NCBI GenBank assembly: GCA_964608675.1 | Contig: CAZSOZ010000001.1 | Coordinates: 221,272-285,271 of the forward strand | Length of the DNA: 64,000 nucleotides | Direction: 5' to 3' | Origin: an uncultured archaeon | GTDB lineage: Archaea; Iainarchaeota; Iainarchaeia; Iainarchaeales; 1-14-0-10-31-34 | Shown: positions 10,449 through 58,900 of the stretch, piece by piece | Layout of the letters: every line of letters begins with the position of its first letter | Position numbering within the stretch: position 1 is the stretch's first letter | Notes under the pieces: model-generated | The model's input: only the letters and a program-made list of their open reading frames with translations | The model's database searches: none | What the model was told of the DNA's origin: nothing | Made by a program: the position numbers and the translations under genes

Positions 10449-10491
10449 AATATCCCGCTAAATTATGTATAAAACATTTTTTATACGCTTC

Positions 10492-11190: not shown

Positions 11191-11251
11191 TTTTTTTTCC
11201 CTCTTTTATTATTGCCTCTTCAAAGTATTAAATTTTTTGTTTTTTTTTGGT

Positions 11252-11689: not shown

Positions 11690-11706
11690 TTTTTTTCCTG
11701 ATTTTT

Positions 11707-30064: not shown

Positions 30065-30628
30065 ATGGCTTTTTCTTTAAGCAGTCTTGAAATAAAAGAA
30101 AACAAAAGTGTTTTGTTTTCAGGCAGGTCTTTTCAGGCAAAAAAATTAATTGAATTAATCTTAAAAGAGCAAAAAAATCAGAAAAATATTCTTGTTGTTT
30201 TGGATCCGGCAAACTATTCTTCTTTAATGAACGATTTTTTTGTTGTTTCAAAAAAAGCTTTTGGAAGAAATTCAGTTGTAGTGGATGATTATTGTCTTTC
30301 TGAAATTTCTTCTGCAGTACATTCAGTTGAAAGAAAATCTGATTCAAAAGGAATTCTTTTGTTTGATTCTCTTTCTTCTTTGCTTTCATTTAATCCTTCA
30401 AACGCAGTTTATTCTTTTCTTTTTTTTGAATCAAGAAAAGCAAAAGAATTAAATTATTCTTTAATTGTGTTTATTGATGAAAGGCTTCATGATACTGCTG
30501 TTTTAATGAACATAAAAAAAATAATGGATTATAATTTCTTTTTTGAATTCAAGGAAAAAAAATTGTTTATAGAAAAAACTGCTTTTCCTTTTAATTCAAT
30601 CAAAAAAAATTATTCTTTTAATGTTTAG
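30065..30628 (+). CDS. KaiC/RecA-like fold protein without a Walker A motif (paralog family).
   Basis: ILLFDSLSSLLSFNPSNAVYSFLFFESRKAKELNYSLIVFIDE is collinear with the Walker B region of 5240-5848 and 30625-31542. Confidence 0.4.
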   Translation: MAFSLSSLEIKENKSVLFSGRSFQAKKLIELILKEQKNQKNILVVLDPANYSSLMNDFFVVSKKAFGRNSVVVDDYCLSEISSAVHSVERKSDSKGILLFDSLSSLLSFNPSNAVYSFLFFESRKAKELNYSLIVFIDERLHDTAVLMNIKKIMDYNFFFEFKEKKLFIEKTAFPFNSIKKNYSFNV

Positions 30629-31542
30629 AGTATTTGAAGGACTCTGTCGCAGAACTGGCTTAATGAATTAACTACTCCTTTATGTTCTTCTGATTTGACC
30701 ATTAAAAGAACTCCTTTCATTTTCCAGTCCCTTAGTTTTCCTATAACTAAATGAATAAATCTTTCAACTGAAGCAATATCGTTGTAAATTAACAAAGTGC
30801 TAATTGAATCAAAAACCAAAAATTTAGGTTTTTCTTTTTGTTTAACATATACTTCATCTATTGCAACACTTAATGCAGTTAAATCTCGAGGAGATTCAAT
30901 GAATTCAACGTTAGGATTAAAAGAAGCTTCTTTTCCTGTTCCTTTGCTTATTGCGTCAACAAAAATTAGTTTTTCTATATCTATTTTTTCTCTTTTAAGT
31001 GTTTCTTTCATGAAGTCAAAAGACCTATTCAAAGTTATGTATAATCCTTTTCCTTGTGTGTGGTTTATTAACAGTCTGATTAATTCGTAATTTATTTTTG
31101 AATAATTTGTTGGTTCCACTAAAAGCAGTGCAGTGAATTGTTCTTTTGGCAGTTCTTCTAAATATCTTAAAATTGTTAAGTCTATTCCTCTTCTCGGGCT
31201 TATTAATTCCTGCAGTGCTTCTTCTGGACGCATTTCTTTTTTTAAATCAGTTTTCATTTCAATGTTTTTTTTTCTTTTGTCTTTTTTTGTTACATAGGTT
31301 CTTATCTGTTTTTCAGGTTTTGTCAGAAGTTTTTCCAGTTCTTTAATTGAATCACCGTCTTTTCCGTTTTTTTTTGCTTCTTTGATTATTTCTTTTTTTC
31401 TTTCTTTTCCCAGGCTCTTTATTTGTTCTGTTAATTTCTGAAATCCTTCTTTTTTTTTTGCCTTCTTTTTTTTATTTTCTTTTTTCTTTTTTCCTTTTTT
31501 CTTGCTTTTCTTTTTTTTCTTTTTCATTTCAGATGTCCTCAA
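30625..31542 (-). CDS. KaiC/RecA-like protein without Walker A, carrying a poly-Lys N-terminal extension.
   Basis: N-terminus MKKKKKKSKKKGKKKKENKKKKAKKK, and a C-terminal FLVFDSISTLLIYNDIASVERFIHLVIGKLRDWKMKGVLLMV (Walker-B-like). It overlaps the downstream KaiC-like ATPase gene by 14 nt. Confidence 0.45.
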   Translation of the reverse strand: MRTSEMKKKKKKSKKKGKKKKENKKKKAKKKEGFQKLTEQIKSLGKERKKEIIKEAKKNGKDGDSIKELEKLLTKPEKQIRTYVTKKDKRKKNIEMKTDLKKEMRPEEALQELISPRRGIDLTILRYLEELPKEQFTALLLVEPTNYSKINYELIRLLINHTQGKGLYITLNRSFDFMKETLKREKIDIEKLIFVDAISKGTGKEASFNPNVEFIESPRDLTALSVAIDEVYVKQKEKPKFLVFDSISTLLIYNDIASVERFIHLVIGKLRDWKMKGVLLMVKSEEHKGVVNSLSQFCDRVLQIL

Positions 31543-32227
31543 ACAATTCCTGTTTTGATAAAACCTTTAATCCTGTCGGCCCGATTGTAACGGGATGAAG
31601 TTTTTCTGATATTTTTGTTCCTCTCATTTTTAGTATTCCTAAACTTCTTACAAACCTGTTTTCTATTTTTGTGTGATACAATAAAATTACTCCGTCTGCA
31701 ACATATTCTTCTAATCCAAACAAGCTTCTTGTTTTATCTAAATTTATTTCGTTTGTTATTACTGTTGTGCAGTCAATTTGTTTTAGCATTTTTCCAAGAC
31801 TCATTATTCTTTTTCTTGCATCCAGTTCTCTGTCAAAGTAAAGCCTGAAAATTACTCCTGGATCAATTACCAGTCTTTTTGCATTAATGGTTTGAATTGA
31901 ATCTTCAATCAAATTTTTGAGTTTGTCAAAATCATATAATTCCACTACTTCTATTATCAGCATTTTTTTCTGAATTAATTCTTCTAATTGGTATCCGAAT
32001 TCTTTTCCATTTCTTATTATTTCGTCGTATGTTTCTTCTAATGAAATGTATATTGCTGGTTCATTGAATTCTATTGCTCCTTTATATAAGTATTCCAGAC
32101 AAAAGCAGGTTTTTCCTGAACCTGGGTCTCCTGCTAATACAACAAGGTTTCCTCTTGGAATTCCTCCATCCATTAATTCATCTAAGCCTGGAACCCCTGT
32201 TTGCGTTCTGTCAGCTAATCTAGGCAT
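31529..32227 (-). CDS. KaiC-like RecA-superfamily ATPase, resembling FlaH/ArlH.
   Basis: GVPGLDELMDGGIPRGNLVVLAGDPGSGKTCFCLEY (Walker A) and RLVIDPG (Walker B); 232 aa, the single-domain size of FlaH. Confidence 0.65.
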   Translation of the reverse strand: MPRLADRTQTGVPGLDELMDGGIPRGNLVVLAGDPGSGKTCFCLEYLYKGAIEFNEPAIYISLEETYDEIIRNGKEFGYQLEELIQKKMLIIEVVELYDFDKLKNLIEDSIQTINAKRLVIDPGVIFRLYFDRELDARKRIMSLGKMLKQIDCTTVITNEINLDKTRSLFGLEEYVADGVILLYHTKIENRFVRSLGILKMRGTKISEKLHPVTIGPTGLKVLSKQELFEDI

Positions 32228-32391: not shown

Positions 32392-32835
32392 ATGTTTAAG
32401 AATAACAAAGGACAATCCGCACTTGAATATTTGATGACATATGGATGGGCTTTGGTTGTAATTGTAATTGTAATTGCAGCCTTGTTTGCTTTCGGTGTCT
32501 TCAATACTCCAAAGAACTGTACACAAACCGGCGGCCAGATGTTGATAAAAAACTATGATTTCAATAGCGGTTTAATACAATTGCAAATTACAAACGGAAC
32601 ACCTAATACAGTAGAAATCACTGGTTTTGATTCTACAACAGGCATTGATAGTTGGTCTGGAGGAGATCCTTGGGTTACACACACCAGTTCTGACTTAGCA
32701 AAAAATGACACTAACACATTCTTTTTAGTGCCGTCATCCGCTTTGTCTGGAAGCATTACTGAAGAAATCACAATGACTTATACATCAGGCGGATTAACTA
32801 AAACAGAAAAAACAACTTGTAGTGGACCAGTTTAA
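32392..32835 (+). CDS. Major type IV pilin / Flp-like pilin with a class III signal peptide.
   Basis: MFKNNKGQSALEYLMTYGWALVVIVIVIAALFA has a short basic N-region, G|QSALEY (Glu at +5 after the Gly, EY as in Flp/archaeal pilins) and a hydrophobic helix. The mature part is Thr/Ser/Gly-rich with N-x-T/S sequons; 147 aa. Confidence 0.7.
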   Translation: MFKNNKGQSALEYLMTYGWALVVIVIVIAALFAFGVFNTPKNCTQTGGQMLIKNYDFNSGLIQLQITNGTPNTVEITGFDSTTGIDSWSGGDPWVTHTSSDLAKNDTNTFFLVPSSALSGSITEEITMTYTSGGLTKTEKTTCSGPV

Positions 32836-33182: not shown

Positions 33183-34172
33183 TTATATTAATGACTTGAA
33201 TGTGTTTTCTAAAAACAGTGAAACAATAAAATAAATTGCATATGATGCAATAAGCATTACTGGAATGTATTTTATTCCTCCTTTTTCGCTTCTTGAATTA
33301 ATTATTCCTATTGTAAGAGACCCAAAAACAGAGATTACTGCTAAAGTCACTAAAGAAAAAACAAAAATGAATTCAGGCTGTATTGCCATTCCTCCTGCAC
33401 CTATTCCTAATCCTCCCTGCGAGGAAGCTAATGCAACTGATTCTTCTGATATTGTTCCAATGCTTCCCATTTGCTTTGACATTATTTTCACGATGAATGA
33501 ACTGATTCCAAACATTAATGGCGCTCCAATCATTGAAGCAAAGAAAATAAGTATTACATACATTGAAACATTTCCTTTTACTTCTTCTTGTAATGCGTTT
33601 TGTTCCCTTAAATCGTCTGATAATTGAAGAAGCAGGTTTGCCATTTCTCCTCCGGATTTCATTCCTTCTGTTATTAGCCAGATTGTTTTTTGAAATGTTT
33701 TTGATTTTATGCTGTTTGTCATTTCTTTTAATGCTGTTTCAGTTCTTTCTCCTGCCATCATTTTTTTGCTTGCTTTTTTGAATTCTATTTCTAATGGGCC
33801 AAATTCAGGTCTTGCAGAAATAAGCAAAGCTTTTTCTGTAGTTATTCCTGATTTCATGTTTGATGCAATTAATTGCAGGGCATCAGGCAGAATTTTTTCT
33901 ACGAATTTTCCTTTGGATTCGCCTGCCTGATTTAATAAATAGTAAATGCCCCCTGCAATCAATGCAAATCCTGCTGTAAATCCAATGAAAAAATTCAGCT
34001 GAAAAAAATAAGTTAATGCAAATCCTGATGCTATTGCTGAAGCAAAACTAAATACTGCCAGAAATCCTGTAAAATTTTTTGTTTCAATATCTATTCCTGA
34101 ATACATTAATTCTTTTGTAAATGTATCTAATACTGTTCTTGGAATCAGTTTTCCTATTTTTTCGTACATCAT
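33183..34172 (-). CDS. Type II secretion system F-domain (T2SSF) membrane protein, TadC/FlaJ-like.
   Basis: Multi-TM protein with a T2SSF-like cytoplasmic region (ASNMKSGITTEKALLISA...); 329 aa. Confidence 0.65.
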   Translation of the reverse strand: MMYEKIGKLIPRTVLDTFTKELMYSGIDIETKNFTGFLAVFSFASAIASGFALTYFFQLNFFIGFTAGFALIAGGIYYLLNQAGESKGKFVEKILPDALQLIASNMKSGITTEKALLISARPEFGPLEIEFKKASKKMMAGERTETALKEMTNSIKSKTFQKTIWLITEGMKSGGEMANLLLQLSDDLREQNALQEEVKGNVSMYVILIFFASMIGAPLMFGISSFIVKIMSKQMGSIGTISEESVALASSQGGLGIGAGGMAIQPEFIFVFSLVTLAVISVFGSLTIGIINSRSEKGGIKYIPVMLIASYAIYFIVSLFLENTFKSLI

Positions 34173-34179
34173 TTTTTTT

Positions 34180-35076
34180 TCATCCCATTAAATTTGGTGT
34201 TTTTGATTTTAATATTCCTAAATACATGAATTCTCCTACTGCAATAAAAATCAACAAAATCCAGAATAACATTTCTCCTAACTGCATTTGAGGAAACGAA
34301 CTTAACACAATAAGGAATGTGACTCCTAATGAAGGAATTATTACTCCTAACATCATGTACATTAATGAAAGAATTTTCATTGAATTTCCGTATTTTGTGA
34401 TTTGGAGTTTTTCTTCTCTTATCATTGTTGAAACCAGTTCTTCCATTACTGAGCTTACATCTGATCCTGCTTTCATTCCGTTTATTATCTGCCAAATGCT
34501 TCTCCTGAAAAAAAGTGAAGGATTGTATCTTGCAATTTTTTCTAATGCAATTTCTTCTATTGTTCCTGTTTCAATTTCTTTTACGGCTTTTCTGAATTCA
34601 TTTGATAATGCGCCGTAATCTCCTTCTGCTATTATATTCAGGGAATCAAACAGGGAAACCCCTGATTTTATTTCCACTGCCATTGTTCTTAAAGCAAAAA
34701 TTAAATTCCTTTCAACTTCTCTTATTTTTTGTTTTCCTTTCATTTTTGGATATAATGCAGTTTGCATCATCACAAATCCGCTGAAAAGAGCGCCTCCTAT
34801 TAAGGCTGCAAGCAAATAACTGTCCGGAAGCAATCGTATTCCAATAAGCAAAGCCAAAATGAATCCTATTACAAAATAGATTGCCCCCATTGTTAGAATT
34901 ATTGCTGAATATTCTTTTTCGTTGTATTCCAGTTCTGCCTGATATAATTCAAGTTTAAGGTAAGGAAAGAATTTTGAAATCTTTAATCCTATTCCATAAA
35001 ATTTTTTTGAAATAGTTTTAATTAGAGAAAGGGGAAGAAAATTAAATGGAATCATTTTGTTTTTTTTTGTTTTCAT
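34180..35076 (-). CDS. T2SSF-domain membrane protein, TadB/FlaJ-like.
   Basis: TM segments and the T2SSF region ALRTMAVEIKSGVSLFDSLNIIAEGDYGALSNEF...; 298 aa. Confidence 0.65.
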   Translation of the reverse strand: MKTKKNKMIPFNFLPLSLIKTISKKFYGIGLKISKFFPYLKLELYQAELEYNEKEYSAIILTMGAIYFVIGFILALLIGIRLLPDSYLLAALIGGALFSGFVMMQTALYPKMKGKQKIREVERNLIFALRTMAVEIKSGVSLFDSLNIIAEGDYGALSNEFRKAVKEIETGTIEEIALEKIARYNPSLFFRRSIWQIINGMKAGSDVSSVMEELVSTMIREEKLQITKYGNSMKILSLMYMMLGVIIPSLGVTFLIVLSSFPQMQLGEMLFWILLIFIAVGEFMYLGILKSKTPNLMG

Positions 35077-35088
35077 TTTTTTTTTACC

Positions 35089-36591
35089 TCAAAAATCAGG
35101 CTTCCTGTTTTTTTCTGCTAATTCAATTATTTCATCTTTGTCTCTGTAATATTTTGCCATTATTTTTCCTACTTTTTCAATTTTTTTTATTTTGTTTTTT
35201 ACCAGCCAGTCAAGAATTATTTTTTTTGTTTTTAGTTCTTTTGACATTTCCTGTCTGCTGAATCCTGTATGCAGACCTAATTCATCAAATAACCTTATGC
35301 TTTCTGAATGTTTTTCTATGGTGTCTGTTGCTCCTTTCCATCGGTATAAAACATTTGCTTTAACTTCTTCTTGGCTTCCTCTTCTTTCAGTAATGTATTC
35401 TGCTATCTGCAGAACTCTTCTTACATTTAGTCTTCTGTTTCTGAACATAACTACATTCAAGTGTACTGAATCCAGCATTGTTTTTGGAACTTCAATTGGA
35501 GGATTTGTAAGCCTTCTTACAGTTTCTGCTGCAGTATTTGCATGAAAAGTAGTGTAAGCTGAATGCCCGGTGTGCATTGCTTCAAATAATACTTCTGCTT
35601 CTCTCTGCCTTCTTATTTCCCCTACAATCAGTCTGTCCGGACGCATTCTCAAAGAATTTACCAGCAAATTAAGCATGGTTACTTCTCCTTTTCCTTCAAC
35701 GTTGGGTTCTCTTGTTGTTAAGGGAACCCAGTGAAGGTAAGGAGGCAAACTTAATTCTCTTGTGTCTTCAATACTTAATATTCTTTGATTGGGTTGAATA
35801 AAAGGCAGGCACACATTTAAAGAAGTTGTTTTTCCTGAACCTGTTCCTCCTGAAAAAATAATGTTTAGTTCGTATTCCATTGCAAGCCAGATTAAAGACA
35901 TTATTTCTGTGTTGACTGTTTTGTTTTCCACAAAATCTGTTACAGTATAAGGTTGTCTTCTGAATCTTCTGATTGTAATAGTGTTTCCTTTGCTTGAAAT
36001 AGGAAACAAGGTTGCATTTGCTCTGTCTCCTGTAATTAAGTGTGCGTCCAGCAAAGGATTTAATACAGTAATCTGCTTTCCTATTCTTCTGGCAATAATG
36101 CTTGCATAATTTTGGATTTCGCTTTCAGGACTCACATAAACGTTTGTTTTCAGCCATCCGAATCCTTTATGGTAAACCCACACAGGGTCAACAGAACTGT
36201 TTATAACTATTTCTTCAATGTTTCCGTCATTTAGCAGGAATTCAATTTTTCCTAATCCAAGCATTTCTTCTAAAAGAAGCCCTATCAATAAATCCCTTGA
36301 ACCTTCCCCTATGTCTGGGAGTTCTCTGTCAAGTATTTTTTCTGCTTTTCCCTGAAATTTTTTTTTCAGCGAATCAACAAAATCAGGGTCCATCATTCTT
36401 TCTGCTTGTATGGTTGAATCAGTTATAATGCTTCTTTTTAGGTTTTCTAATACTGCTTCTGTTCCTTCTCCGAATTCAGGGAAATTAAGAAAATAAATTC
36501 TTACAAATTCATTTTCTTTTTCAAGTATGTTTACTTCAATTTCTGTTTCAATTGATTTCACTTTATATGTTTTTAGTACTTTTTCTTTCAT
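35089..36591 (-). CDS. Type IV pilus / secretion ATPase of the FlaI/TadA(CpaF)/VirB11 family.
   Basis: IIFSGGTGSGKTTSLN Walker A, RLIVGEIR Walker-B/Asp box, and His box EAMHTGHSAYTTFHANTA. The N-terminal domain is about 230 aa; total 500 aa. Confidence 0.85.
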   Translation of the reverse strand: MKEKVLKTYKVKSIETEIEVNILEKENEFVRIYFLNFPEFGEGTEAVLENLKRSIITDSTIQAERMMDPDFVDSLKKKFQGKAEKILDRELPDIGEGSRDLLIGLLLEEMLGLGKIEFLLNDGNIEEIVINSSVDPVWVYHKGFGWLKTNVYVSPESEIQNYASIIARRIGKQITVLNPLLDAHLITGDRANATLFPISSKGNTITIRRFRRQPYTVTDFVENKTVNTEIMSLIWLAMEYELNIIFSGGTGSGKTTSLNVCLPFIQPNQRILSIEDTRELSLPPYLHWVPLTTREPNVEGKGEVTMLNLLVNSLRMRPDRLIVGEIRRQREAEVLFEAMHTGHSAYTTFHANTAAETVRRLTNPPIEVPKTMLDSVHLNVVMFRNRRLNVRRVLQIAEYITERRGSQEEVKANVLYRWKGATDTIEKHSESIRLFDELGLHTGFSRQEMSKELKTKKIILDWLVKNKIKKIEKVGKIMAKYYRDKDEIIELAEKNRKPDF

Positions 36592-38358
<1,767 letters not shown>

Positions 38359-38402
38359 TTTATATTCCCATTTATATGTTGTTGTTTATCCTTTTTATTT
38401 TT

Positions 38403-39503
38403 TCATGTCGCTTTAGTTATTGCACTTGGATTAGATTCGTTTCCATACCAGTCCACTGCAGTTAAATAAAAGTAATTTGTCTGCCATAATTCCAGCTCTT
38501 TTCCTGTTTCTTCTTTTGAGGAAACTGCGTTCAGAACATATGCAGTGAATGCCTGGCTGTCTTCTTTGCTTCTGTAAATCCTGTATTCTTTTAAATCTTC
38601 TTCTGGGTTTGCATTCCATGCAATAAGTATTTTGCCGTCTGTTTTTCTTGCAGTTATTCCTGTTGGAGCAGAGGGAGCAATCGAATCATTTTTTACTTTT
38701 ATTCCTGTGATTTCAAAAACTTTTCCTGTGTTTTTTATTTCAATTATATATTCTCCTTCTTTTTCAGGAGCAGTTAATTCTGCTGAAAAAATTTTTGAAC
38801 AGGAACTGCATAAATTTTTTGTTATTTTTTGGGTTTTTTGTGTTGAATTATTTTTAATCCATTCAACAATAAAATTGAATTCTTTTGCAGGAATTTTTTC
38901 TGCATCTACAATTAAACTAATTTTTTGGTTTGGTTTAACAAATTTTTTTTCTATTGAAATTCTTTTTATTTCAAATGTTTCTTGATGAATGCATTTTCCG
39001 TTAATGCATTCTCCTTCGTTGCATCCGCATTTTTCGCAGTTTTTTTCCAGTTTTCCGTTATTGCAGTAATTTGGCTTTTGTTTTGAACATTCTCCAAACA
39101 AAGTTCCGTCAATGCATTTTTTTTCTGTTTCAATTACAGTTATTTTCTTTTTTTTGTTTATTTGGTTTCCGTTATCCAGAATCATTTTCATTTCAATCAT
39201 GTAAACTCCTGTTTTCTGAAAGATTTCTGTGAATTCAACTGAGCATTCTGTTTTACTGCATTCTTTTTCTTTTGTTTTTTCTGGAGACAAGTAAACTATT
39301 TTTTTTATGAGGAAAGAACTTTCTGCATTTACTTCAAATAATGCTTTTTCTCCTTTCTCAAAGCTTTCTTTTGATTTAATTTCAATTTTTGATTCAGTGG
39401 TTATTCCTTTAACATTAATTATTCCTGCAGAACTCAAAGTAAAAAAAACCCCTAAAAAAACTGTTATTGAAAGAATTATTGAAAAAATATTTTTTATTTC
39501 CAT
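38403..39503 (-). CDS. Secreted or membrane-anchored protein with a Cys-rich module and a C-terminal fibronectin-III-like domain.
   Basis: N-terminal hydrophobic signal; CIDGTLFGECSKQKPNYCNNGKLEKNCEKCGCNEGECINGKCIHQ; the C-terminal PSAPTGITARKTDGKILIAWNANPEEDLKEYRIYRS...YFYLTAVDWYGNESNPS is FN3-like. Confidence 0.45.
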   Translation of the reverse strand: MEIKNIFSIILSITVFLGVFFTLSSAGIINVKGITTESKIEIKSKESFEKGEKALFEVNAESSFLIKKIVYLSPEKTKEKECSKTECSVEFTEIFQKTGVYMIEMKMILDNGNQINKKKKITVIETEKKCIDGTLFGECSKQKPNYCNNGKLEKNCEKCGCNEGECINGKCIHQETFEIKRISIEKKFVKPNQKISLIVDAEKIPAKEFNFIVEWIKNNSTQKTQKITKNLCSSCSKIFSAELTAPEKEGEYIIEIKNTGKVFEITGIKVKNDSIAPSAPTGITARKTDGKILIAWNANPEEDLKEYRIYRSKEDSQAFTAYVLNAVSSKEETGKELELWQTNYFYLTAVDWYGNESNPSAITKAT

Positions 39504-39510
39504 TTTTTTT

Positions 39511-40473
39511 TCACTTGTTTGTTTTTTCTATATTAAATCTGCTGTCAGTCAAAGTTATGTTTAAGTCATTTAATTTTATTTCTTCTATTTCTGAAGTAAA
39601 CAAAAACTGGACTTTTGCTTGAATTTGTGTTCCTGAATGCCTTATTTCAACATTGTTTTCATTGAAAAAAATTTTTATTTCTTCTGAATTGCATCCTGCA
39701 CCAACACACAAAAAAGTTATTTCGTGGTCTGATGTTGAATCAAAATGCTTGCTTGTTTTTCTGGTATCTGAATTTAAATCGCATTCTGAACAGTTTTCAT
39801 CCAGCAAATTTACTTCAATAAAAGGACTTAACTGCATGGGATTATAGCTTTCCTGATAACAGTTTTGATCTCCTCCGTAATCACATGACAAAAAATTGTA
39901 GTCTTCTGAAGACGAAACAGAAATATTTATGTCAATCTTTCTGATTAAATCTATATCAAAATTTTCTTCGCATTCATTTGAGCCATGAAAGTGCATTGAA
40001 TTGTAGTCTGTTAAAGTGTATTTTTGGCATTGTGGTTTTATAATTAAATTAATGTTTTCATCTATTCCCCCCCATAAACTGTTTTTTGGGGCTTCTACTT
40101 CAACTTCTATTAAATCATAAATTGCTGAATCACTGCTTTCAGCAAAAATTTCATATGCATTAATAAAATCAAAAAAGCTTTTGGTTTGAACTTCTTTTAA
40201 GGGAAGTTTTTGAGTAAAACTGACAGTTCTTTCTTCAATTGAATAAGTAAACGGAACAAGCCTTTCAAAATAAGTTTTTGTTGTTCCTGTCCTGTAAAAA
40301 TCTTTTATAAAACCTATGTTTGAATACTTGTATTTTACTTGGTCAACGGCGTTTGAAGCAAATGACTTTTTTTCTGCTTCCAGATACTGGCTGTTTATTT
40401 TGAATGCAAAACCTAACAGCATTAAAGACAAAACCAATCCCATTAAAACAAAAAATAATCCTTTGTTTTTCAT
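39511..40473 (-). CDS. Secreted protein with a possible class-III-like (pilin-like) N-terminus.
   Basis: MKNKG|LFFVLMGLVLSLMLLGFAF: short basic N-region, Gly, then a 20-aa hydrophobic stretch. It overlaps the upstream gene by 4 nt. Confidence 0.35.
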   Translation of the reverse strand: MKNKGLFFVLMGLVLSLMLLGFAFKINSQYLEAEKKSFASNAVDQVKYKYSNIGFIKDFYRTGTTKTYFERLVPFTYSIEERTVSFTQKLPLKEVQTKSFFDFINAYEIFAESSDSAIYDLIEVEVEAPKNSLWGGIDENINLIIKPQCQKYTLTDYNSMHFHGSNECEENFDIDLIRKIDINISVSSSEDYNFLSCDYGGDQNCYQESYNPMQLSPFIEVNLLDENCSECDLNSDTRKTSKHFDSTSDHEITFLCVGAGCNSEEIKIFFNENNVEIRHSGTQIQAKVQFLFTSEIEEIKLNDLNITLTDSRFNIEKTNK

Positions 40474-43196
40474 TTAATCCAGCCCCTGTATTCTATTACA
40501 TAAAATTCTGTTTTTGGAGAAGCATAACAATGAATGGAATCAAGATTATTTGTAGGGCATTCACTTAAATTTCCGTTTGGATTGACTTCCACGCAGATTA
40601 TTCCTTGTGTAGCAATATATTCATCTAAATAAAGTATTGTTGAAAAACTGCAGTCTGAGTCATTTCCTCCGCATAATTCAGGCACAAGATAATGATTTCC
40701 AAGAAGAATTCTTCCTGCTCCTGTACTGCAAACTGAATCATTTCCTAAATAAAAATTCAAATCAGTTTCTCCTGTGTTCAAATCTCCAATATTTGATACA
40801 TTTACATCAATAAAAATGTCTGTTTCGCTTAATATTTCTCCACTGATTATTTCAACTGCAATATCTCTTTTTTTGAATGGAATTGGAACAGTGAATGCAT
40901 TCCAGTCAATTATTTGTGTTGTTCCGTTTTCATCCACATAAGACAAATAACTTCCTTGTCCGGGAAAAACAATTGAATCTGTTTCGCATCCTAAATTTGA
41001 ATCACATGCAATATTAATTGTATAACTTCCGTGCCAAGGATTTTCAGGAGAAATGTTTCCTGCATCAAAAACAAGGTTTCCGTCAATAATTGTAGCGTTT
41101 CCGTCATCAATTATCGTAATATTTTGAGGCATTATAATTGTTACGTTGGAGTCTGTTGCTTGAGCCTGAATTTCATCTGCAATCAAATTATAGATGTCCA
41201 TTAATGCATTTGCGTCTTCTGCAAAGTAATAATTGGCATCAGTTGCATTAGCAATATTCTGTAATTCTGTTTCATCCACGTCTCCTCCAAATCCAATAGT
41301 ATAAATTTTTATTCCTAAATCTGCTGCGTCTTCTGCTGCCTGCAACGAATCCCCTGAATTTGACTGTCCGTCTGACAGCAAGACTTGGAATTTTAATGCA
41401 TATTCCGCGGTTCTTTCTGAAATTAATTCTTCTGTTCCTTCTCTTATTCCTTGTTCGATGTTTGTTCCTCCTCCGGGCAACAGGGAATTTACATCTGTCT
41501 GTAATGCAAGTTTGTTTGAATCATCTAATTTTTTTAATTGTGAATCCAGAAAAGAAGAAGTATGAAAGCTGGCTACTCCTATTTGGTCTGATGCTTTCCA
41601 TTCATTGAAATCAATAAATGTAGCAGCAGAAGCCTGAACTGCATCCATTTTTGTTCCAGAACTTAAATCCAAAGTAATTAAACCCATTGAATCAGCCGCA
41701 ATAAATGCATACCCGTTTTCGACTCTTACATCATTATATTCGTAAGGAGTCCTGTAAATTCTGTTCAATAAAGGATTATCTACATCGCTTACATCAATGG
41801 AATACAAGCCTCCTGATTCATCTGCAATATATGCAGTGTTTCCGACTACATCAACTCCTCTTGCGTTGTCTGCAGTATTATAGTTCCCTCTTGCACTAAT
41901 ATTGCTTGGATCACTTACATCAAAAACGTCCAGTCCTCTTGAACCATTTGCAACAAACACATAGTTTCCTGAAACTTTTACTCTGTAAGCTTGTCCGCCT
42001 AAATCCATTGAATCCTCAAAAGTTAAATTGTTTGGGTCACTGGCATTTAATACAACAAATCCGTCATTGTAATTTCCTATATATAAATAAGTTCCATCTG
42101 AATCAATTCCAAACGCAGTTCCAGAAGTATCATAATTGTCCTGATGATTTATATTTCCTGGATCGCTTGCATCATATGAATCAACTCCTCTTGAACCGTT
42201 TGCAGCATACAATTGATTCCCTATTTTTACAACCCCATAAGAATAGTTTCCTGATAAATCAACTCTGTCTGTTTCAAACATGTCTGTAGGATCGCTTATA
42301 TCTATTGATCTTATTCCTGAAGTGTAATCTGCCACATATGCATAATTTCCTTCAATAAAAACATCAAAAGCAATATATGTGTCTTGCCTGTCTCCATATA
42401 ATATGTCTAATGGATTGCTTACATTAAAACTGTATATTCCATAATAATAATCTGCAAGGAAAGCATAATTTCCTGAAACATCAACTGCCTGAGAATTATA
42501 TGCGTCGTATTCTCCTCCCCAGCTCATTGAACCGCTTTTGTCTATAACAAGCATTATGTCTACAGGCCTTCGGTATCCAGGGGGAAAAGCAGCAGTCAAA
42601 TTAACTATAATATTTTGATCGCATTCAAGTTCTGTGTCAGGAACCGTATTTACATCGAAAACAAAATTAAGGTCTTCTCCCATGAAATCAAAAAATATTT
42701 TTCCTGTGTCAAAAACAAATTTTTGTTCTGATTGCATTAAACCCAGAATATTTGTATCACATTCTCCTGGAGGCTGTTTTTTTACAATTAATTTTTTTCC
42801 GTAGAAAACAGTTTTATTTTCAGGGACTTCTGATCCAAAAGAGAATTCATTAAAATCTGTTCCAAAACAATCATTAAAAGTCTGGTTGTTTCTGCATTTA
42901 ATTGAATTCAAATCAAATTGTTTTACGCTTACATTTAAGTCAAGGTAATCAGGAAAAAATCCTTCAAGTTTATTGTAAATATTTTCAGCTGAAGCAGATG
43001 TATTTGCATCCATTTGACTTATAAGAAACCCTGTTTGTTCCATTGCATTGAATGCGTCGTTTAATTCCTGTCCAATGTTTCTTTCAGCTTTTTCTTCAGA
43101 AAAAAATAATCCTGCAGACAAAATTATTCCTGAAACTAAAACTAATGCAAGAATAGCATCAAAACTAAATGTAAACCCTTTATTCCCATAATTCAT
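40470..43196 (-). CDS. Giant pilin-like adhesin: class III signal peptide, then a vWA domain interrupted by an LVIVD-repeat beta-propeller, then a C-terminal Cys-containing domain.
   Basis: Likely start MNYGNKG|FTFSFDAILALVLVSGIILSAGLFF; the ORF track extends to 43241. MIDAS DIMLVIDKSGSMSW is followed by about 300 aa of LVIVD-like repeats (YAFLADYYYGIYSFNVSNPLD, YAYVADYTSGIRSIDISDPTD, YVFVANGSRGLDVFDVSDPSN, TAYIADESGGLYSIDVSDVDNP, YAFIAADSMGLITLDLSSG). The vWA then resumes (GGGTNIEQGI, LLSDGQSN, IYTIGFGGD). Confidence 0.7.
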   Translation of the reverse strand: MNYGNKGFTFSFDAILALVLVSGIILSAGLFFSEEKAERNIGQELNDAFNAMEQTGFLISQMDANTSASAENIYNKLEGFFPDYLDLNVSVKQFDLNSIKCRNNQTFNDCFGTDFNEFSFGSEVPENKTVFYGKKLIVKKQPPGECDTNILGLMQSEQKFVFDTGKIFFDFMGEDLNFVFDVNTVPDTELECDQNIIVNLTAAFPPGYRRPVDIMLVIDKSGSMSWGGEYDAYNSQAVDVSGNYAFLADYYYGIYSFNVSNPLDILYGDRQDTYIAFDVFIEGNYAYVADYTSGIRSIDISDPTDMFETDRVDLSGNYSYGVVKIGNQLYAANGSRGVDSYDASDPGNINHQDNYDTSGTAFGIDSDGTYLYIGNYNDGFVVLNASDPNNLTFEDSMDLGGQAYRVKVSGNYVFVANGSRGLDVFDVSDPSNISARGNYNTADNARGVDVVGNTAYIADESGGLYSIDVSDVDNPLLNRIYRTPYEYNDVRVENGYAFIAADSMGLITLDLSSGTKMDAVQASAATFIDFNEWKASDQIGVASFHTSSFLDSQLKKLDDSNKLALQTDVNSLLPGGGTNIEQGIREGTEELISERTAEYALKFQVLLSDGQSNSGDSLQAAEDAADLGIKIYTIGFGGDVDETELQNIANATDANYYFAEDANALMDIYNLIADEIQAQATDSNVTIIMPQNITIIDDGNATIIDGNLVFDAGNISPENPWHGSYTINIACDSNLGCETDSIVFPGQGSYLSYVDENGTTQIIDWNAFTVPIPFKKRDIAVEIISGEILSETDIFIDVNVSNIGDLNTGETDLNFYLGNDSVCSTGAGRILLGNHYLVPELCGGNDSDCSFSTILYLDEYIATQGIICVEVNPNGNLSECPTNNLDSIHCYASPKTEFYVIEYRGWIK

Positions 43197-43734
43197 AAAC
43201 TTGTAATTCAATTTGAGCTTCACTTCCTCTATAATTAACAATTCTTTTGGTTGAAATCAAATATTCTGTCTGGCTTGCAGGACTTAATCCTGCACTAATT
43301 ATTATTACTCCTTGAGTTAAAACAAAATAATAATCATATCCTTCCAATCCAAGGAGTTCCCTGCTTTTATTGTAGTCAAGATTTGAAAAAGCTGTCAGTT
43401 TGTCTTCGCTTATCTGATTTCTTTCCATTAATCCAATTCTTTCAATATGGCTTTCACTTAAATCCTCCCAGTTTTCAGGATAGCCTTTTGTTTCAGTTAA
43501 TTCTTTTAAAACAAAAAAAGAAGAATGATTGATTTCATTTAATTCCATGTTTCTAGTAAAATCTTTTGTGTTTTTGTTTACTGCTGAAAGAACAGAAGTA
43601 AAAATTAAAACAAAAATAAAAAACCCCATAACTAAATCAATCATGCTTGACTGTCCTCGTTTGCTTTTATGCAGGAATAAGAAAGTGCTTTTAGTCAAGC
43701 ACAAGGATTTCTTAGATTTTTTCAATTTCAACAA
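43180..43734 (-). CDS. Pilin-like protein (minor pilin / pseudopilin) with a class III signal peptide.
   Basis: KRGQSSMIDLVMGFFIFVLIFTSVLSA: G|QSS followed by a hydrophobic helix; 184 aa. Confidence 0.5.
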   Translation of the reverse strand: MLKLKKSKKSLCLTKSTFLFLHKSKRGQSSMIDLVMGFFIFVLIFTSVLSAVNKNTKDFTRNMELNEINHSSFFVLKELTETKGYPENWEDLSESHIERIGLMERNQISEDKLTAFSNLDYNKSRELLGLEGYDYYFVLTQGVIIISAGLSPASQTEYLISTKRIVNYRGSEAQIELQVYELWE

Positions 43735-44068
43735 CTCCGTTTAAATCTTTTATTCTTACATTTCCTTTTGTAATAAAAATTTCTTGGGCTATTCCATAAT
43801 AACTGCAGGAAATTCCTTCAACATCAATCCACCCTTCACCTACATTAAAGTCTTTTTCTGCATAAAATTCAACGGTTGTTTTTTTTCCTGAAGCATAAAC
43901 TGAACTGATTATATCTGAGATTTTTCTGCATTCAGCTTTTGATTCAAGATAATCTGCCATTATTTCAATTTCATTATTTTTTTCAAAACTATATGCTGCA
44001 ATTACTGCAAAAGATAAAAGCAGTACAACTGCTCCAATAATTATTTCCATTGAAACCTGGCCTTTCAT
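43712..44068 (-). CDS. Pilin-like protein with a class III signal peptide.
   Basis: MKGQVSMEIIIGAVVLLLSFAVIAA has the QxSxE motif immediately after Gly; 118 aa. Confidence 0.6.
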   Translation of the reverse strand: MKGQVSMEIIIGAVVLLLSFAVIAAYSFEKNNEIEIMADYLESKAECRKISDIISSVYASGKKTTVEFYAEKDFNVGEGWIDVEGISCSYYGIAQEIFITKGNVRIKDLNGVVEIEKI

Positions 44069-44078
44069 TTAAATCATT

Positions 44079-44507
44079 TCAGCTAATTTCAGTGAAAGTG
44101 ACATTTGAATCAGTGGATTCAACTGCAATAAAATGAAATCCTTCTTCTGTTGAAAAACTTGTTGGTTCAAGTTCTGCTTTGCTTATATCATAAACTTCAT
44201 AAGTGCTTACTAAAGAAGTCATTTCAATTATTACTTGGCTGCCAATTGTATAAAAATTTGTTACTCCTGAAGGAAGTTCTGCTTCAACTACAATAATGCT
44301 TCCGTTTCTTGTGCTTACTTCATCTGCAGCATTAACTAATTCCCTTAAAGAATAATAAGTTGTATTAAATCTCTCGTTTTCATTCACAGTAATTATTGCA
44401 AAAACAAACATTATTCCTACAATAAGCATAACAATTGCAGTAAGACTTACGTATTCAACAGAAATCTGCCCTTTATTCAAAAAACCACTTTCCTTATTTA
44501 GAAACAA
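44079..44507 (-). CDS. Pilin-like protein with a class III signal peptide; first gene of the operon, with an apparent TTG start.
   Basis: LNKGQISVEYVSLTAIVMLIVGIMFVFA has QxSxEY; 142 aa. Confidence 0.6.
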   Translation of the reverse strand: MFLNKESGFLNKGQISVEYVSLTAIVMLIVGIMFVFAIITVNENERFNTTYYSLRELVNAADEVSTRNGSIIVVEAELPSGVTNFYTIGSQVIIEMTSLVSTYEVYDISKAELEPTSFSTEEGFHFIAVESTDSNVTFTEIS

Positions 44508-44605: not shown

Positions 44606-45544
44606 TTGTTTTTCGTTATATTTTTAGTTTGCTCTGCAAAAATATATTTAATGTTTTCAGTTAAAAGCAAGGCATCAGAAGAACAGGAATTATGGAAAAA
44701 AATAGAGGACTTAGAAAATTCCCTTAAAAAAGCTGAATCTGCCAATAAACCTGAAATCGAAATTCAGTTAGCAAAACTTAAATTTCAGTTATCTGAACTT
44801 CAGAAGCCTTCAAAAAAAAGAAATCTTGATTTTGAAGTTGAACTGCAAAAAAAGCAGTCTCAATACAATGATTTATATGAAAAATACTCTAAATTAAGGC
44901 AGGCAGTAGGTTCAGTAAGTTCTGTTTCTGAAATAGAAGAAAAGCAGAAAGAAAAAGAACTAAAAGACAAACTGCATAAATTTCTTCTCAAAAAATATGC
45001 TGACATAATAAATGAAACCGAAAAAAAAACTATTGGAGAAATAAAAGGTCTTATTGATCCAGATGATTTAAGCATTCAGTCTCTTTTGGCAGAATTAATT
45101 ACAGAAAATTATTCTTTCAGCAAAAATTATCTTTCAATGGCAAAAGAAGCCTATGATTTTGTTTTAAAAGAAATTTCTTTTGTTGAATCAGATATAAAAA
45201 TCAATTTTTGGCTTACTCCTACTGAAATAATAAAAAACAAATTTGCAGACGATGAAGATTTAGCTGTGTTTTTATGCACTTTGCTTTATGCTTTAGGAGA
45301 CGAAAACGCGTTTGTGATTGTAGCTGAAATGGAAAACCTTTCAAGCCATGCTTTTGTTATTACTGAACACAAAAACAAATTTTATTTGTTTGACTCTTCA
45401 CAGAAAAAATCTTTTAATGAATTTTCAGGAAAAAAAGAAGAAATATTAGAAAATTATTCTTTCAGGGACTCAAAAATCAAGAGATTTTTATACAGATTTA
45501 ATGCATTAGAATACGAGCAGTTTCCTGAAGAAAGAACAGAATGA
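44606..45544 (+). CDS. Coiled-coil protein with a C-terminal transglutaminase-like (Cys-His-Asp) core.
   Basis: DLAVFLCTLLYALGDENAFVIVAEMENLSSHAFVITEHKNKFYLFDS has Cys, His and Asp in the order and spacing of transglutaminase-like/papain-like cores. The N-terminal 120 aa is coiled-coil. Confidence 0.35.
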   Translation: MFFVIFLVCSAKIYLMFSVKSKASEEQELWKKIEDLENSLKKAESANKPEIEIQLAKLKFQLSELQKPSKKRNLDFEVELQKKQSQYNDLYEKYSKLRQAVGSVSSVSEIEEKQKEKELKDKLHKFLLKKYADIINETEKKTIGEIKGLIDPDDLSIQSLLAELITENYSFSKNYLSMAKEAYDFVLKEISFVESDIKINFWLTPTEIIKNKFADDEDLAVFLCTLLYALGDENAFVIVAEMENLSSHAFVITEHKNKFYLFDSSQKKSFNEFSGKKEEILENYSFRDSKIKRFLYRFNALEYEQFPEERTE

Positions 45545-55995: not shown

Positions 55996-58900
55996 ATGAA
56001 ATTAAATTTCCTTTTAATTTTAATTCTTTTGTTTTTGTTTTCTGGCTGTTCAGAGGAAAAACTTGAATACAAAAACGCGTGCCTTTCTCTGACTTCTTAT
56101 TCTTTTCAGGAAATTCCTGAATGCAGTTCTCAGGAAGACTGCTTTAAAGAAGTTGAAAAACACTTGTTTGATTTTAAGCAAACTTTTTCTTTTGAATCTT
56201 CTGATAAACTTCATTCTTATAAAAATAATCTTGCTTCTTCTTGGCTTTATTTTAATAAATCCCTTAAGCTGGTAAAGGAACTAAACCGTTTGTGTTATTC
56301 TGATGATTTTTCTTTTCTGCCGGAAAAAACCAATGAACTGGTTTTTTCTTTGGAAAAAGCATTTGAATTTTCAGATAAAGCAAGCCTTGATTCTTTTTCT
56401 TTTCTTTTAACAGAAAAAAATTTTCTGAACAAACAAAACATTGAATTAATTCCTGAAGAGCTTTTGTTTGATGATTTTATTTTATTTAATCACAATCTGA
56501 ATGAATTGTCTACTCCTGAAATATACAAGTCTTCTGGTTCTTATGTTTCAAAATATTTTAATGCTTCAGCAGAATTCAATGATTTTTCCTCTAAATTTGG
56601 TTTTTATTCTCTTTATTTGAATGAATTCACTTCCTCTGACTTAATTAATTTTTATCAAAAAGACGCTCTTGATTCAGTTAAATCAAATAAATTTTATGTT
56701 CCACTGATGAAAAAAACTTTTTCTTCGGTTTCTTCCTTTATTTTCGGCTTAAATGACTTAAAAAGAACTGTTTCTGTTCTTAATTCAATTCCTTCAAACA
56801 AACTGTTTTTTTTGTATGGAAATTTTGTTTCTCCAAAAAATTCTGTTGCATCAGAATTTTCTCTGCTCGTTAAAAAAGTTTCAGAGCACAAGTTGTCTTT
56901 AAATGAATCAAATAATTCTTTGGTTTTGGAAATTGAATCTGATTTTAATGAAATTTCTTTTAAGCTTGACGAGCTCTCTGTTTCTTCTGTAAGCAGATTT
57001 GATTCAAATATAACTTCTTTTCTTTTTGAGGAACTGAATGCTTCTTTTATTTCAGAAAACAAAAACGAAATTTTTTCTGCTGAAACTTTTGTTTTTGAAT
57101 CAAGAAAAAAGCTTTCACTGCTTAAATCAAAGTTCAATGAATTAAAAAGAAAGGATTCTTTTAATGAAATTTCTTTGGGAAAAAAATCTTCCCTGCTTAA
57201 GCAAATTAAAGCTGAAACTCTTTCCCTGAAAGAAGACATTGGTTTTTTTGCAGGAGCCTTTATTGATGAATTAATTGTTTTATGCAGTACAAAAACAGAA
57301 TTAATTTCTTCAGAATTAAACCAAAAAGATTTTTCTTCTTTTTCTTGGGAAATAACTTCTCTTGCCTCCAGAACTGCAGTAAAAATTGATTTATTTGAAG
57401 ATGCTTCAAAAGAACAAAAAATTATTTACTGTAAGGACACCATTCTCCTCAAAAAACAGCTTGATTCTGCTTTAGAAAACCAGGAAAAATTTCTTTTAAG
57501 TTCTTCTGAGTCCCTGAACGAATGCATTTCTTCCCTTGAAAAAATTTTTTATTCAAAAAATCTTTCAGTTTTTGTTGATTCTTTTTATTCCCTTAAATCC
57601 ATGCAAAAAAACAGGCTTCCTTTTTCTTATCTTTTGGATTCCTGTTCAGACCTCAAAAAAAGAATAACTGTTTACCTTTATTCTTATGATGAAGAAATAA
57701 TTCAGGCAAACGATTTTTACATCAAATCAGAAAAAATTTTATCAAATCTTTCCTTTTTATCAAAAATTTATCCCGAATTCTTTAATTCAGTCAAAACAAC
57801 CAATTTTATTTCTGATTTTGATGAAATTTCACTTGATTTTTCTTTAAAAAAACTTAAACCTGAATTTTTTCCTTTTTCTTCTGAAAAACTTTCTTTAATC
57901 AAAAAATTTAATCAAAAAATAAATTCTTTTTTTTCTTCTTCTTTTGGACAATTCCTTTCATTTAATTATTCAATAAAATCTTTTCCTTTAGAGCAGGCGG
58001 TTCTAGGAAAAACTTTTTTGGTTAAACAAAAAATCTTTTTTCCCAATCCTTTGAATGAACCAATTAACCTTGAATTCTCTTTTCTTTCTCCTTTTCTTTC
58101 TTCTGAAAATAAATTAATTCATTCATGCATTAAAGAGATAACTAAAAGCAAGTCTAATTCAAGAATTTTAGTTTCTTGTTTTCCTGAGGAAGGGCTTTTG
58201 TTTGAATCAGACAAAAATTTACTGCTTTCTTTTTTTGATTCTTTTCCTGAATTAATTGAAGCAAACCAGAATTCTGTTTTGTTTTCTAAATCCCTGAAAA
58301 TTGATTCTTTTTCACAAATTTCTTCTTTGAAGGCAGTTGTTCCTTTGGAATTTAATTCTGATAATGCTTTTGCTGTATTTAATTCACAGAAAATTCCTGT
58401 TGAAATAAAAGAAAAAAACGCGGTTTTTTATTTGGAGGAACTTAATTCAGAGCCTTTGATTGAATTATTTTTTTCTGTTTCCAAACCTGTTTCTTTTGAA
58501 TTTTCCGAGAAATCAAGAAAAAAACTTGATGAAAACACTTTTTTGGTTTTTTTTGATTTACAGTTAAAAAACAATCTGGCTTTTGATTTTGATTCAATTA
58601 AAATTTTTCTTCCTTTAAATGACTCTGATTCAATTCTTGAAGCAAAATTAACAGATTTTTCTTCTGAAATAAAAGTTTATTCTTTGGGAAAAAAATTTTT
58701 TTTTAAAACCTCTTTAAATAAACTTGAGTCAAAAAAATTTTTTCTTGAAATAAAAATAAAAGACTTTGATGAATACAAAAAATCATTGAAGAATTCTCTT
58801 TTATCTGAAATTTCATTGATTGAAGACCCTGTTTTCAGAAAAAATTTTCAGACAAAAATTAATTCTGCTGATTCCTTTGAAGAATTAATTGAATTAAATG

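Follow-up and report, generated by a model that had tools for sequence, protein, structure and literature searches.

The archaeal type IV pili closest to the system analyzed here are the Epd pili and the pili of clades 1 and 2 (Makarova et al., 2016; Denise et al., 2019). The Methanococcus Epd pilus depends on EpdL and on both EpdJ and EpdK, and its pilins are cut at KG/Q (here and below, the slash marks the cleavage site), Gln at +1 and Glu at +5 of the mature protein being the signature of substrates of the EppA peptidase in this genus (PMC4371748). Many euryarchaeal loci of clades 1 and 2 contain two tadC-like genes, and the published model of clade 1 includes large PilY-like adhesins along with at least five minor pilins (Makarova et al., PMC4858521). 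Epd-like and Tad systems share two single-domain platform genes that originate from gene fission within Archaea, with the Tad system having passed from Archaea into Bacteria, and Epd pili mediate attachment (Denise et al., 2019, PMC6668835). In the DPANN archaea, two accounts, Hamm et al. ("The parasitic lifestyle of an archaeal symbiont") and a study of Nanohaloarchaeota where the system is denoted "Tad" (PMC9563170), describe a core that consists of a CpaF/TadA-type ATPase and a TadB/TadC-type platform, next to which a coiled-coil or charged protein and two kaiC genes are encoded, whereas the cluster lacks a prepilin peptidase. In these accounts, the pilins are either not annotated or represented only by FlaF/PilA in one type of locus, and Iainarchaeota are not among the lineages named in the passage of Hamm et al. 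that was consulted.

A locus with the same core is present on the minus strand of a 64-kilobase (kb) stretch of DNA from an uncultured archaeon (contig CAZSOZ010000001.1, positions 221,272 to 285,271; hereafter the window, in which all coordinates are given unless a related locus is named). It was compared with 80 related DPANN loci, labeled L001 and onwards; protein domains of the locus and its neighbors were identified by Pfam and NCBIfam scans. Judging from gene content and this comparison, the locus is likely to encode an adhesive surface type IV pilus of the archaeal Epd/clade 2 kind in which a tip complex of minor pilins would display an exchangeable adhesin. The core of such a system is known from earlier work on DPANN and on Epd-like pili. 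New here are a pilin cassette with a distinct sequence signature for each of its five slots, a candidate major pilin and a pair of KaiC-like genes that had been missed, and the assignment of a variable, modular adhesin to slot 4, with a von Willebrand factor A (vWA) domain that in the window is interrupted by a propeller. The genes of the locus are as follows (lengths in amino acids, aa; slots are those of the cassette):

44079-44507, minus strand: g1, predicted slot 1 minor pilin; open reading frame (ORF) of 142 aa, Gln at +1 and Glu at +5

43712-44068, minus strand: g2, predicted slot 2 minor pilin, 118 aa; MKG/QVSMEI

43180-43734, minus strand: g3, predicted slot 3 minor pilin, about 160 aa; RG/QSSMID, start codon uncertain

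40470-43196, minus strand: g4, predicted slot 4 modular pilin, 908 aa from the ATG; NKG/FTFSFDA, Pfam VWA and LVIVD

39511-40473, minus strand: g5, slot 5 pilin-like protein, 320 aa; NKG/LFFVLM, no acidic residue near the N-terminus

38403-39503, minus strand: g6, secreted or N-terminally anchored protein, 366 aa; Cys-rich middle part and FN3-like C-terminus

36592-38358, minus strand: g7, predicted cytoplasmic Lys/Glu-rich protein, 588 aa; winged-helix domain at approximately residues 510-570

35089-36591, minus strand: g8, pilus assembly ATPase, 500 aa; T2SSE

34180-35076, minus strand: g9, N-terminal half of the platform, 298 aa; T2SSF

33183-34172, minus strand: g10, C-terminal half of the platform, 329 aa; T2SSF

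32392-32835, plus strand: candidate major pilin, 147 aa; KG/QSALEYLMTYGWALVV, convergent with g10

31529-32227, minus strand: KaiC-like ATPase with a single domain, 232 aa; Walker A and B both intact, Pfam KaiC 9e-59

30625-31542, minus strand: degenerate KaiC-like protein; no P-loop, Lys-rich N-terminal tail

The ten minus-strand ORFs (33183-44507) are all found at the coordinates claimed by the initial annotation, and so is the tight packing that it described, with gaps of 0-44 nucleotides (nt) and overlaps of 4-23 nt between the most likely start codons and the preceding genes. In the direction of transcription, g1 and g2 are separated by 10 nt, g2 and g3 overlap by at most 23 nt (the start of g3 being uncertain), g3 and g4 by 17 nt, and g4 and g5 by 4 nt; the subsequent gaps are 7 nt (g5-g6), 44 nt (g6-g7), 0 nt (g7-g8), 12 nt (g8-g9) and 7 nt (g9-g10). 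These ten genes encode five co-transcribed proteins with pilin-type N-termini, one secreted protein, one Lys/Glu-rich cytoplasmic protein, the pilus ATPase and two half-size platform proteins. The interval of the initial annotation left out the likely major pilin (32392-32835, plus strand) and the two KaiC-like genes (30625-32227, minus strand).

The assignment of g1-g5 to the pilins starts from their N-termini, which all consist of a short basic leader ending in Gly and a hydrophobic stretch; the latter is found also after NKG/FTFSFDA in g4 and after NKG/LFFVLM in g5. The N-terminus of g1 reads KG/QISVEY, and the public gene call, which starts at 44480, yields a protein of 133 aa with the leader MNKG/QISVEY. 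The published definition of class III signals, taken from a review (a charged residue at -2, Gly, Ala or Ser at -1, and then a hydrophobic domain), describes six proteins here, namely g1-g5, three of which had been assigned such signals in the initial annotation, and the 147-aa protein. Four of the six (g1, g2, g3 and the 147-aa protein) have Gln at +1; g1, g2 and the 147-aa protein also have Glu at +5, which in g3 is replaced by Asp at +6. The motif is no accident of composition: the six reading frames of the window contain just three instances of [KR][GA]Q.[STA].[DE], each within the pilus locus, and a stricter N-terminal rule applied to 60 non-overlapping ORFs of the window also selects only ORFs of this locus. 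In the public gene call (P0135), g3 is a 154-aa protein that starts with MIDLV inside the predicted mature protein, so that the signal is lost, whereas its homologs retain RG/QSS upstream. Such a miscall helps to explain why DPANN pilins have been reported as "not annotated", and start codon errors of this kind may hide pilins in DPANN annotations.

The g1-g5 genes are one instance of a five-gene cassette that, in the comparison of related loci, is conserved across DPANN and recurs with overlapping genes and with products of about 135, about 125, about 165, 139-1883 and about 300 aa in slots 1 to 5, respectively. In slot 1, all 18 proteins compared have Gln at +1 and an acidic residue at +5; in slot 2, the same positions are Gln in 23 of 24 and acidic in 24 of 24; in slot 3, Gln is at +1 in 27 of 30 proteins and the acidic residue is at +6 in 29 of 30. 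Slot 4 proteins have a hydrophobic residue at +1 and conform to F.FS.DA..A, with Asp or Glu at +6 in 33 of 33, a count that is not independent because the search pattern demanded this residue. In slot 5, the +1 residue is again hydrophobic and 28 of the 29 members contain neither Asp nor Glu at +1 to +8; among the relatives, the slot 5 gene always directly follows slot 4, with a short gap or an overlap. Slot 5, including g5 of the window, has no relative in Pfam or the Protein Data Bank (PDB). The position of the cassette varies as a unit: it is found upstream of the machinery on the same strand, upstream in divergent orientation, or downstream of the KaiC gene. Wherever the source gives a name, the cassette proteins are annotated "hypothetical protein".

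In the AlphaFold2 model of g3 (predicted local distance difference test, pLDDT, 89.3), a 55-residue N-terminal helix is followed by a four-stranded sheet, that is, the predicted topology is the pilin topology of a long helix and then a beta-sheet. The slot 3 family comprises 3057 representatives at 50% identity according to an exhaustive profile search, which was needed because a word-indexed search retrieved only 13 matches; every named member that was sampled is a DPANN protein labeled "hypothetical". Weak matches to Pfam DUF7287 were obtained for 13 of 29 slot 3 members and a short slot 4 protein weakly matches DUF7288, the best E-values for the links to DUF7287/DUF7288 being 8e-4 and 7e-5. 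These matches hint that the cassette is older than DPANN and should be taken only as a lead; no mention of DUF7287 or DUF7288 was found in the literature. Some slot 3 homologs (P0152, P0155, P0182, P0198, P0273 and P0288) are approximately 370-400 aa long, and two stretches of each align with the profile, pointing to tandem duplication or fusion of slot 3 pilins; one of these two-stretch proteins comes from a metagenome-assembled genome (MAG) of Micrarchaeota.

The idea, put forward in the initial annotation, that pilin-like proteins replace the usual accessory genes in this locus is not supported: these proteins form a conserved five-gene minor pilin cassette, and the clade 1 model as published already includes large adhesins and at least five minor pilins. 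In the closest relative (L001), the ATPase is 87% and the platform proteins are 74-78% identical to those of the window, compared with only 31-34% for the pilins, and slots 1 and 4 differ in size (L001:4565-5986 and L001:6773-7267): slot 4 is only 164 aa long and slot 1 carries a large extension, for a total of 473 aa. In L006 and L015, it is the slot 2 pilin that is enlarged, to approximately 550 aa; none of these slot 1 and slot 2 extensions has a match in Pfam. A large extension can thus occupy different slots. At the level of sequence, the comparison with L001 shows rapid turnover and exchange of the modules predicted to be displayed, and conservation of the machinery combined with divergence of the cassette and swapping of its cargo fits an adhesin that is under pressure to change its target.

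The protein in slot 4 of the window, g4, matches Pfam VWA (3e-19) and LVIVD repeats (8e-30). It was initially described as a 923-aa pilin-like vWA protein; the domain and the pilin-type N-terminus stand, and the length is 908 aa from the ATG. In its AlphaFold2 model (pLDDT 83.6), an N-terminal helix and a small helix/sheet head are followed by the first strand and the DxSxS loop of the vWA domain, a seven-bladed LVIVD propeller of 28 strands (residues 228-510), the remaining part of the vWA domain and beta-sandwich domains. As the DxSxS loop precedes the propeller and the remainder of the vWA domain comes after it, the propeller is inserted into the vWA domain beside the metal site. The predicted metal-ion-dependent adhesion site (MIDAS) motif, DxSxS...T...D, is complete and conserved, with D219, S221, S223, T578 and D609 being invariant in 33 homologs. 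The 100 N-terminal residues of g4 align with the slot 3 pilin profile (hhalign probability 88%, E = 3e-6), and the shortest slot 4 proteins (139-164 aa) consist of the pilin module alone. Hence g4 has the composition of a modular pilin, an N-terminal pilin module with a class III signal joined to an independent functional domain. The best match of the g4 model in a Foldseek search of the PDB is the pilus tip adhesin SpaC (E = 8.5e-15, TM-scores 0.21-0.25). Among 30 large slot 4 proteins, 21 contain VWA, 5 a concanavalin A (ConA)-type lectin domain, 4 LVIVD and 3 another propeller; sialidase-N modules are also found, and the largest proteins combine lectin and vWA modules. Altogether, the vWA domain and the pilin-type N-terminus make g4 a plausible tip adhesin, in line with the putative tip or adhesion module of the initial annotation.

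Several bacterial adhesins are organized in a similar manner. In Streptococcus sanguinis, the pilins PilB (vWA) and PilC (ConA-like lectin) likewise carry a functional module grafted onto a pilin module, the metal site of the vWA domain is used in adhesion, and both classes of modules recur in the DPANN slot 4 proteins; these modular vWA and lectin pilins act as adhesins, and the survey of modular pilins covered bacteria only. In contrast to the S. sanguinis proteins, with which it shows no detectable sequence relationship, g4 has an archaeal class III signal, and its vWA domain is interrupted by the propeller and followed by beta-sandwich domains. PilY1 of Pseudomonas also combines a vWA domain with a beta-propeller and is presented by differentiated minor pilins (FimU-PilVWX), as is proposed here; however, PilY1 does not belong to the pilins, its propeller comes after the vWA domain instead of interrupting it, and no homology was detected. 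In SpaC, from the sortase pilus of Lactobacillus rhamnosus GG, a vWA head is placed on immunoglobulin-like domains at the pilus tip. Sortase-dependent assembly is unrelated to that of type IV pili, and the low TM-scores limit the match with g4 to the domain level.

Dockerins may be yet another displayed module. A pilin-like protein encoded in a Nanoarchaeota locus (L048:8026-8850, minus strand) contains a dockerin domain and matches DUF7266. Within the window, a protein with a dockerin type I domain (6e-8) is encoded at 3269-3877 on the plus strand.

Just past g10, on the opposite strand, the gene at 32392-32835 encodes a protein that starts with MFKNNKG/QSALEYLMTYGWALVV. Many DPANN loci have, next to the machinery, a gene or tandem copies of a gene for a protein with a nearly identical N-terminus (QSALEYLMTY or QAAMEFLMTY). 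The conservation, size and stand-alone position of this gene suggest that its product is the major pilin. On its other side lies the KaiC-like gene 31529-32227, whose product scores 147 bits against KaiC_arch_3 and 47 bits against ArlH, for which the cut-off is 215. A KaiC gene directly follows the platform genes in many DPANN loci, including those of Woesearchaeota and Nanoarchaeota. The degenerate KaiC-like protein (30625-31542; DUF7504 7e-9, KaiC 3e-4) is paired with the KaiC gene also in L006, L008, L011, L015 and L073. An association of KaiC-family ATPases with archaeal pilus loci has been reported, and two kaiC genes are present in the Nanohaloarchaeota clusters (PMC9563170); that study also describes the MAG from which the related locus L016 derives. 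Adjoining the KaiC-like pair, on the opposite strand (30065-30628, plus strand), is a gene whose 187-aa product weakly resembles DUF7504, DUF835 and FlaH (E 0.006-0.015) and which may be a third degenerate member of the KaiC family.

The initial annotation listed two secreted proteins, g5 and g6, the latter with an FN3 domain; g5 has a pilin-type N-terminus, and the FN3 label of g6 comes from weak hits (PDB 5z06, E 0.009; 5jip, E 0.013). The N-terminus of g6 is hydrophobic, the protein has no Pfam match, and its orthologs, found in L005, L006, L008 and L015, are confined to relatives within Iainarchaeota. The stop codon of g7 abuts the start codon of g8, with a gap of 0 nt, as the initial annotation had noted for this 588-aa Lys/Glu-rich protein. 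Lys and Glu make up 41% of g7, its maximum hydropathy is 0.49, and there is no hydrophobic segment. Across the DPANN phyla only a domain of about 60 aa (approximately residues 510-570) is conserved, the remainder being variable in length and rich in Lys and Glu; the domain gives weak winged-helix matches to TrmB, MarR and HTH_24. The search for g7 homologs returned only 14 close relatives, the query being of low complexity, and the winged-helix domain was found from the related loci. Lacking both a signal peptide and a membrane segment, and with a stop codon that adjoins the start of the ATPase gene, g7 most likely serves in the cytoplasm as a partner or regulator of the motor. Judged by its place and make-up, it is probably the counterpart of the coiled-coil protein that Hamm et al. 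describe beside CpaF and TadC across DPANN and liken to a viral attachment protein; its features argue for an intracellular location.

Upstream of the cassette and divergent from g1 is a gene for a transglutaminase-like or CEP76 peptidase-like protein (44606-45544, plus strand; DUF553 2e-5). Homologs with 40-77% identity are encoded near the pilin genes in the Iainarchaeota loci L001, L004, L005, L006, L008 and L015; those that appear on the gene map lie immediately upstream, on the opposite strand. The gene may be functionally connected with the pilus.

The g8 protein matches Pfam T2SSE (3.7e-37) and contains a Walker A motif (GSGKTT), a Walker B motif and a His box, which bears out the initial assignment to the FlaI/TadA-type ATPases. 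Its NCBIfam scores are 278 bits for FlaI, 198 for TadA and 139 for VirB11; among PDB structures, it scores 229 bits against Archaeoglobus fulgidus GspE2 (2oap) over nearly the full length, 181 against FlaI, 164 against CpaF and 82 against VirB11. By these score rankings, g8 belongs with the archaeal pilus ATPases, as a hexameric ATPase of the FlaI/GspE2 type. The protein is 87% identical to the ATPase of a Ca. Iainarchaeum MAG, 61-68% to those of other Iainarchaeum MAGs, and 50-59% to homologs from Woesearchaeota, Nanoarchaeota, Aenigmarchaeota, Nanohaloarchaeota and Altiarchaeota; these identities place the source of the window in Iainarchaeota (Diapherotrites), a DPANN lineage. The platform is encoded by two separate T2SSF genes, as initially described, with one domain each (g9, 2e-17; g10, 9e-15). 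The g9 protein aligns with residues 6-248 of 555 in ArlJ and 16-241 of 484 in UpsF, and g10 with residues 264-479 of 484 in UpsF; the two are 28% identical to each other. The ATPase, the N-terminal half (about 295 aa) and the C-terminal half (about 325 aa) are encoded by separate ORFs, in the same order, in all 62 resolvable loci of the 80, which represent at least five named DPANN phyla.

Taken together with the pilin genes, the motor suggests the following scheme. A prepilin peptidase encoded elsewhere in the genome would trim the short leaders, and the ATPase with the split platform would polymerize the 147-aa subunit (QSALEYL) as the major pilin. By analogy with bacterial minor pilins, g1-g5 would form a low-abundance priming complex that stays at the tip. 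Since no acidic residue lies close to the N-terminus of the slot 5 protein, its place would be at the apex, like that of GspK in type II secretion; the lack of the conserved acidic residue is a trait that slot 5 shares with GspK and PilX. The metal-dependent vWA/propeller head of slot 4 would bind a protein or glycan ligand on a surface or on another cell, and the ATPase would have g7, with its winged helix, and the KaiC pair as its scaffold or regulators. A more far-reaching proposal, which we consider rather doubtful and offer only tentatively, is that a fixed DPANN five-slot cassette forms the pilus tip, with one slot (usually 4, sometimes 1 or 2) being the exchangeable carrier of vWA, propeller, lectin or, once, dockerin modules, and that swaps of these modules set the host or surface attached.

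Other interpretations of the locus have to be weighed. The two single-T2SSF genes resemble those of bacterial tad operons and led to the initial proposal of a hybrid, in which a bacterial Tad-type split platform (TadB/TadC) has been joined to an archaeal Epd-type system. Bacterial Tad/Flp systems indeed share with the locus a single ATPase, a split platform and pseudopilin-like minor subunits including the large vWA-bearing TadG. However, in the locus the platform genes come as an N-terminal and then a C-terminal half of ArlJ/UpsF, archaeal GspE2 and FlaI rank as the nearest relatives of the ATPase, CpaF coming third, no secretin (RcpA), TadZ, TadD, Flp pilin or TadV was detected in the scans of the locus and its neighbors, and Pfam TadE/TadG has no match in the locus. 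Given that the split is native to archaeal Epd-like pili, is published as ancestral to Tad and as a product of gene fission within Archaea, and is universal among the DPANN relatives, it is an archaeal trait and not a bacterial import, so that the hybrid reading, which we regard as very improbable, fails. A rotary motility filament related to the archaellum can hardly be entertained. FlaI is the best NCBIfam model for g8 and a single-domain KaiC-like ATPase is encoded nearby, but the FlaI score of 278 bits is far below the model cut-off of 550, the KaiC-like protein prefers KaiC_arch_3 to ArlH by 147 to 47 bits, the archaellum platform is a single fused ArlJ, and the same scans detected no ArlF, ArlG, ArlX, ArlCDE or archaellin, in agreement with the initial report that archaellum genes (FlaF/G/X) are absent; no archaellum accessory gene was found in the window. 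A conjugative type IV secretion system (VirB11/TrbB) was also considered and rejected: the VirB11 scores are 82-139 bits compared with 229-278 bits for the archaeal pilus ATPases, and no VirB4, VirD4 or VirB6-type partners were found in the scans.

The remaining alternatives accept a type IV pilus-like machine and assign it another task. That the pilus serves mainly for the capture of DNA or nutrients, in a competence-like uptake process, rather than for adhesion, is unlikely as the principal role. The idea draws on Methanococcus maripaludis, where natural transformation requires Epd-type pili, with epdJ, epdK and epdL among the genes needed, and on the proposals of pilus-mediated DNA import in Undinarchaeota and Nanohaloarchaeota; yet the slot 4 cargo, with an intact vWA metal site, a propeller and lectin-type modules, is typical of protein or glycan rather than DNA binding, and the domain scans of the locus showed neither a second (retraction) ATPase nor a DNA-binding pilin or a DNA transporter. 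DNA uptake could nevertheless coexist with adhesion and is a credible additional or alternative role. A short pseudopilus, or a secretion and assembly device akin to type II secretion or the Sulfolobus bindosome that places g5, g6 and other surface proteins on the cell, is quite improbable. The 149-bit match of g8 to the bindosome ATPase BasE, the several genes for large secreted or pilin-like proteins, and the differentiated minor subunits, one of them without an acidic residue, which resemble the GspH-K tip, could all be read in this way. Conversely, the BasE score is much lower than those of FlaI and GspE2, the locus encodes no substrate-binding protein that has a class III signal, and the highly conserved 147-aa pilin gene adjoining the machinery, here and in the relatives, is typical of major pilins that form filaments.

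The interpretation as an adhesive surface pilus thus appears preferable, and several observations count against it. The pilus is known here from its genes, and the role of the 147-aa protein as the major subunit is proposed from conservation and gene context. Analogy is the basis for the location at the tip, for the order given to the minor pilins and for the roles suggested for g7 and the KaiC-like proteins. The Pfam Class_IIIsignal model gives g1 17.5 bits, below its cut-off of 23.7, and slot 1 orthologs 21-22 bits, the overall range being 17.5-22.4 bits. Finally, searches for GxGD motifs and multi-span ORFs revealed no A24-family prepilin peptidase (PibD/FlaK/EppA) in the window, in accord with the initial annotation, and the related loci, all 80 of them, likewise have none within 10 kb, an absence shared with the published Nanohaloarchaeota clusters (PMC9563170).

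Against the background of the Epd and clade 1-2 pili, this putative adhesive pilus shows a mixture of shared and distinct traits. The shared ones are a single assembly ATPase, two single-T2SSF platform genes, cleavage of pilins after KG with Gln at +1 and Glu at +5 (predicted here), at least five minor pilins accompanied by large adhesin-like proteins, and a role in attachment (proposed here). Among the differences, the candidate major pilin has 147 aa as opposed to about 70 aa in the Epd/Flp type, so that the short major pilin that characterizes the Epd-like/Tad clade is not seen, and the large adhesin is a pilin with vWA and propeller domains instead of a DUF2341 protein. The winged-helix, Lys/Glu-rich protein and the KaiC pair are attached to the machinery, and the closest solved relative of the ATPase, by score, is A. 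fulgidus GspE2. The locus encodes no EppA, and the domain scans found no FleN/MinD (TadZ-like) ATPase in it or beside it; the latter may be encoded elsewhere in the genome.

With regard to the host dependence that the initial annotation considered probable, the window also encodes, beyond the pilus locus, glycolysis, glycogen and methylerythritol phosphate (MEP) pathway genes. Archaea normally use the mevalonate route; the run at 8030-12867 on the minus strand is of the bacterial MEP (1-deoxy-D-xylulose 5-phosphate, DOXP) type and includes DXS (DXP_synthase_N 1e-97), IspF (3.5e-41), IspD (1.5e-61) and DXR (about 1e-43). The gene at 55996-59988, on the plus strand, has a 1330-aa product whose N-terminus resembles that of a lipoprotein or a signal sequence and for which Pfam gave no match at E 0.1; it may be one more large protein of the cell surface. 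The window yielded no matches when scanned for Rfam families and tRNAs. A promoter and terminator scan of the window, based on bacterial models that are not applicable to archaea, found promoter-like sites no more common and terminator-like sites only slightly more common than in shuffled sequence.

DPANN archaea are mostly uncultivated, and the ways in which they attach to partners or surfaces are largely obscure; surveys had identified the motor genes, with the pilins left unannotated. The locus described here and its 80 relatives show where the pilins are located, namely in a five-gene cassette beside a stand-alone candidate major pilin, and thus provide concrete candidates for attachment factors together with a simple sequence rule for finding them. 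The general picture of type IV filament evolution is unchanged, the split platform being archaeal and later inherited by the bacterial Tad system. If it is true that the modules of the cassette set the partner, the cassette would be a readable predictor of partner specificity in uncultivated symbionts.

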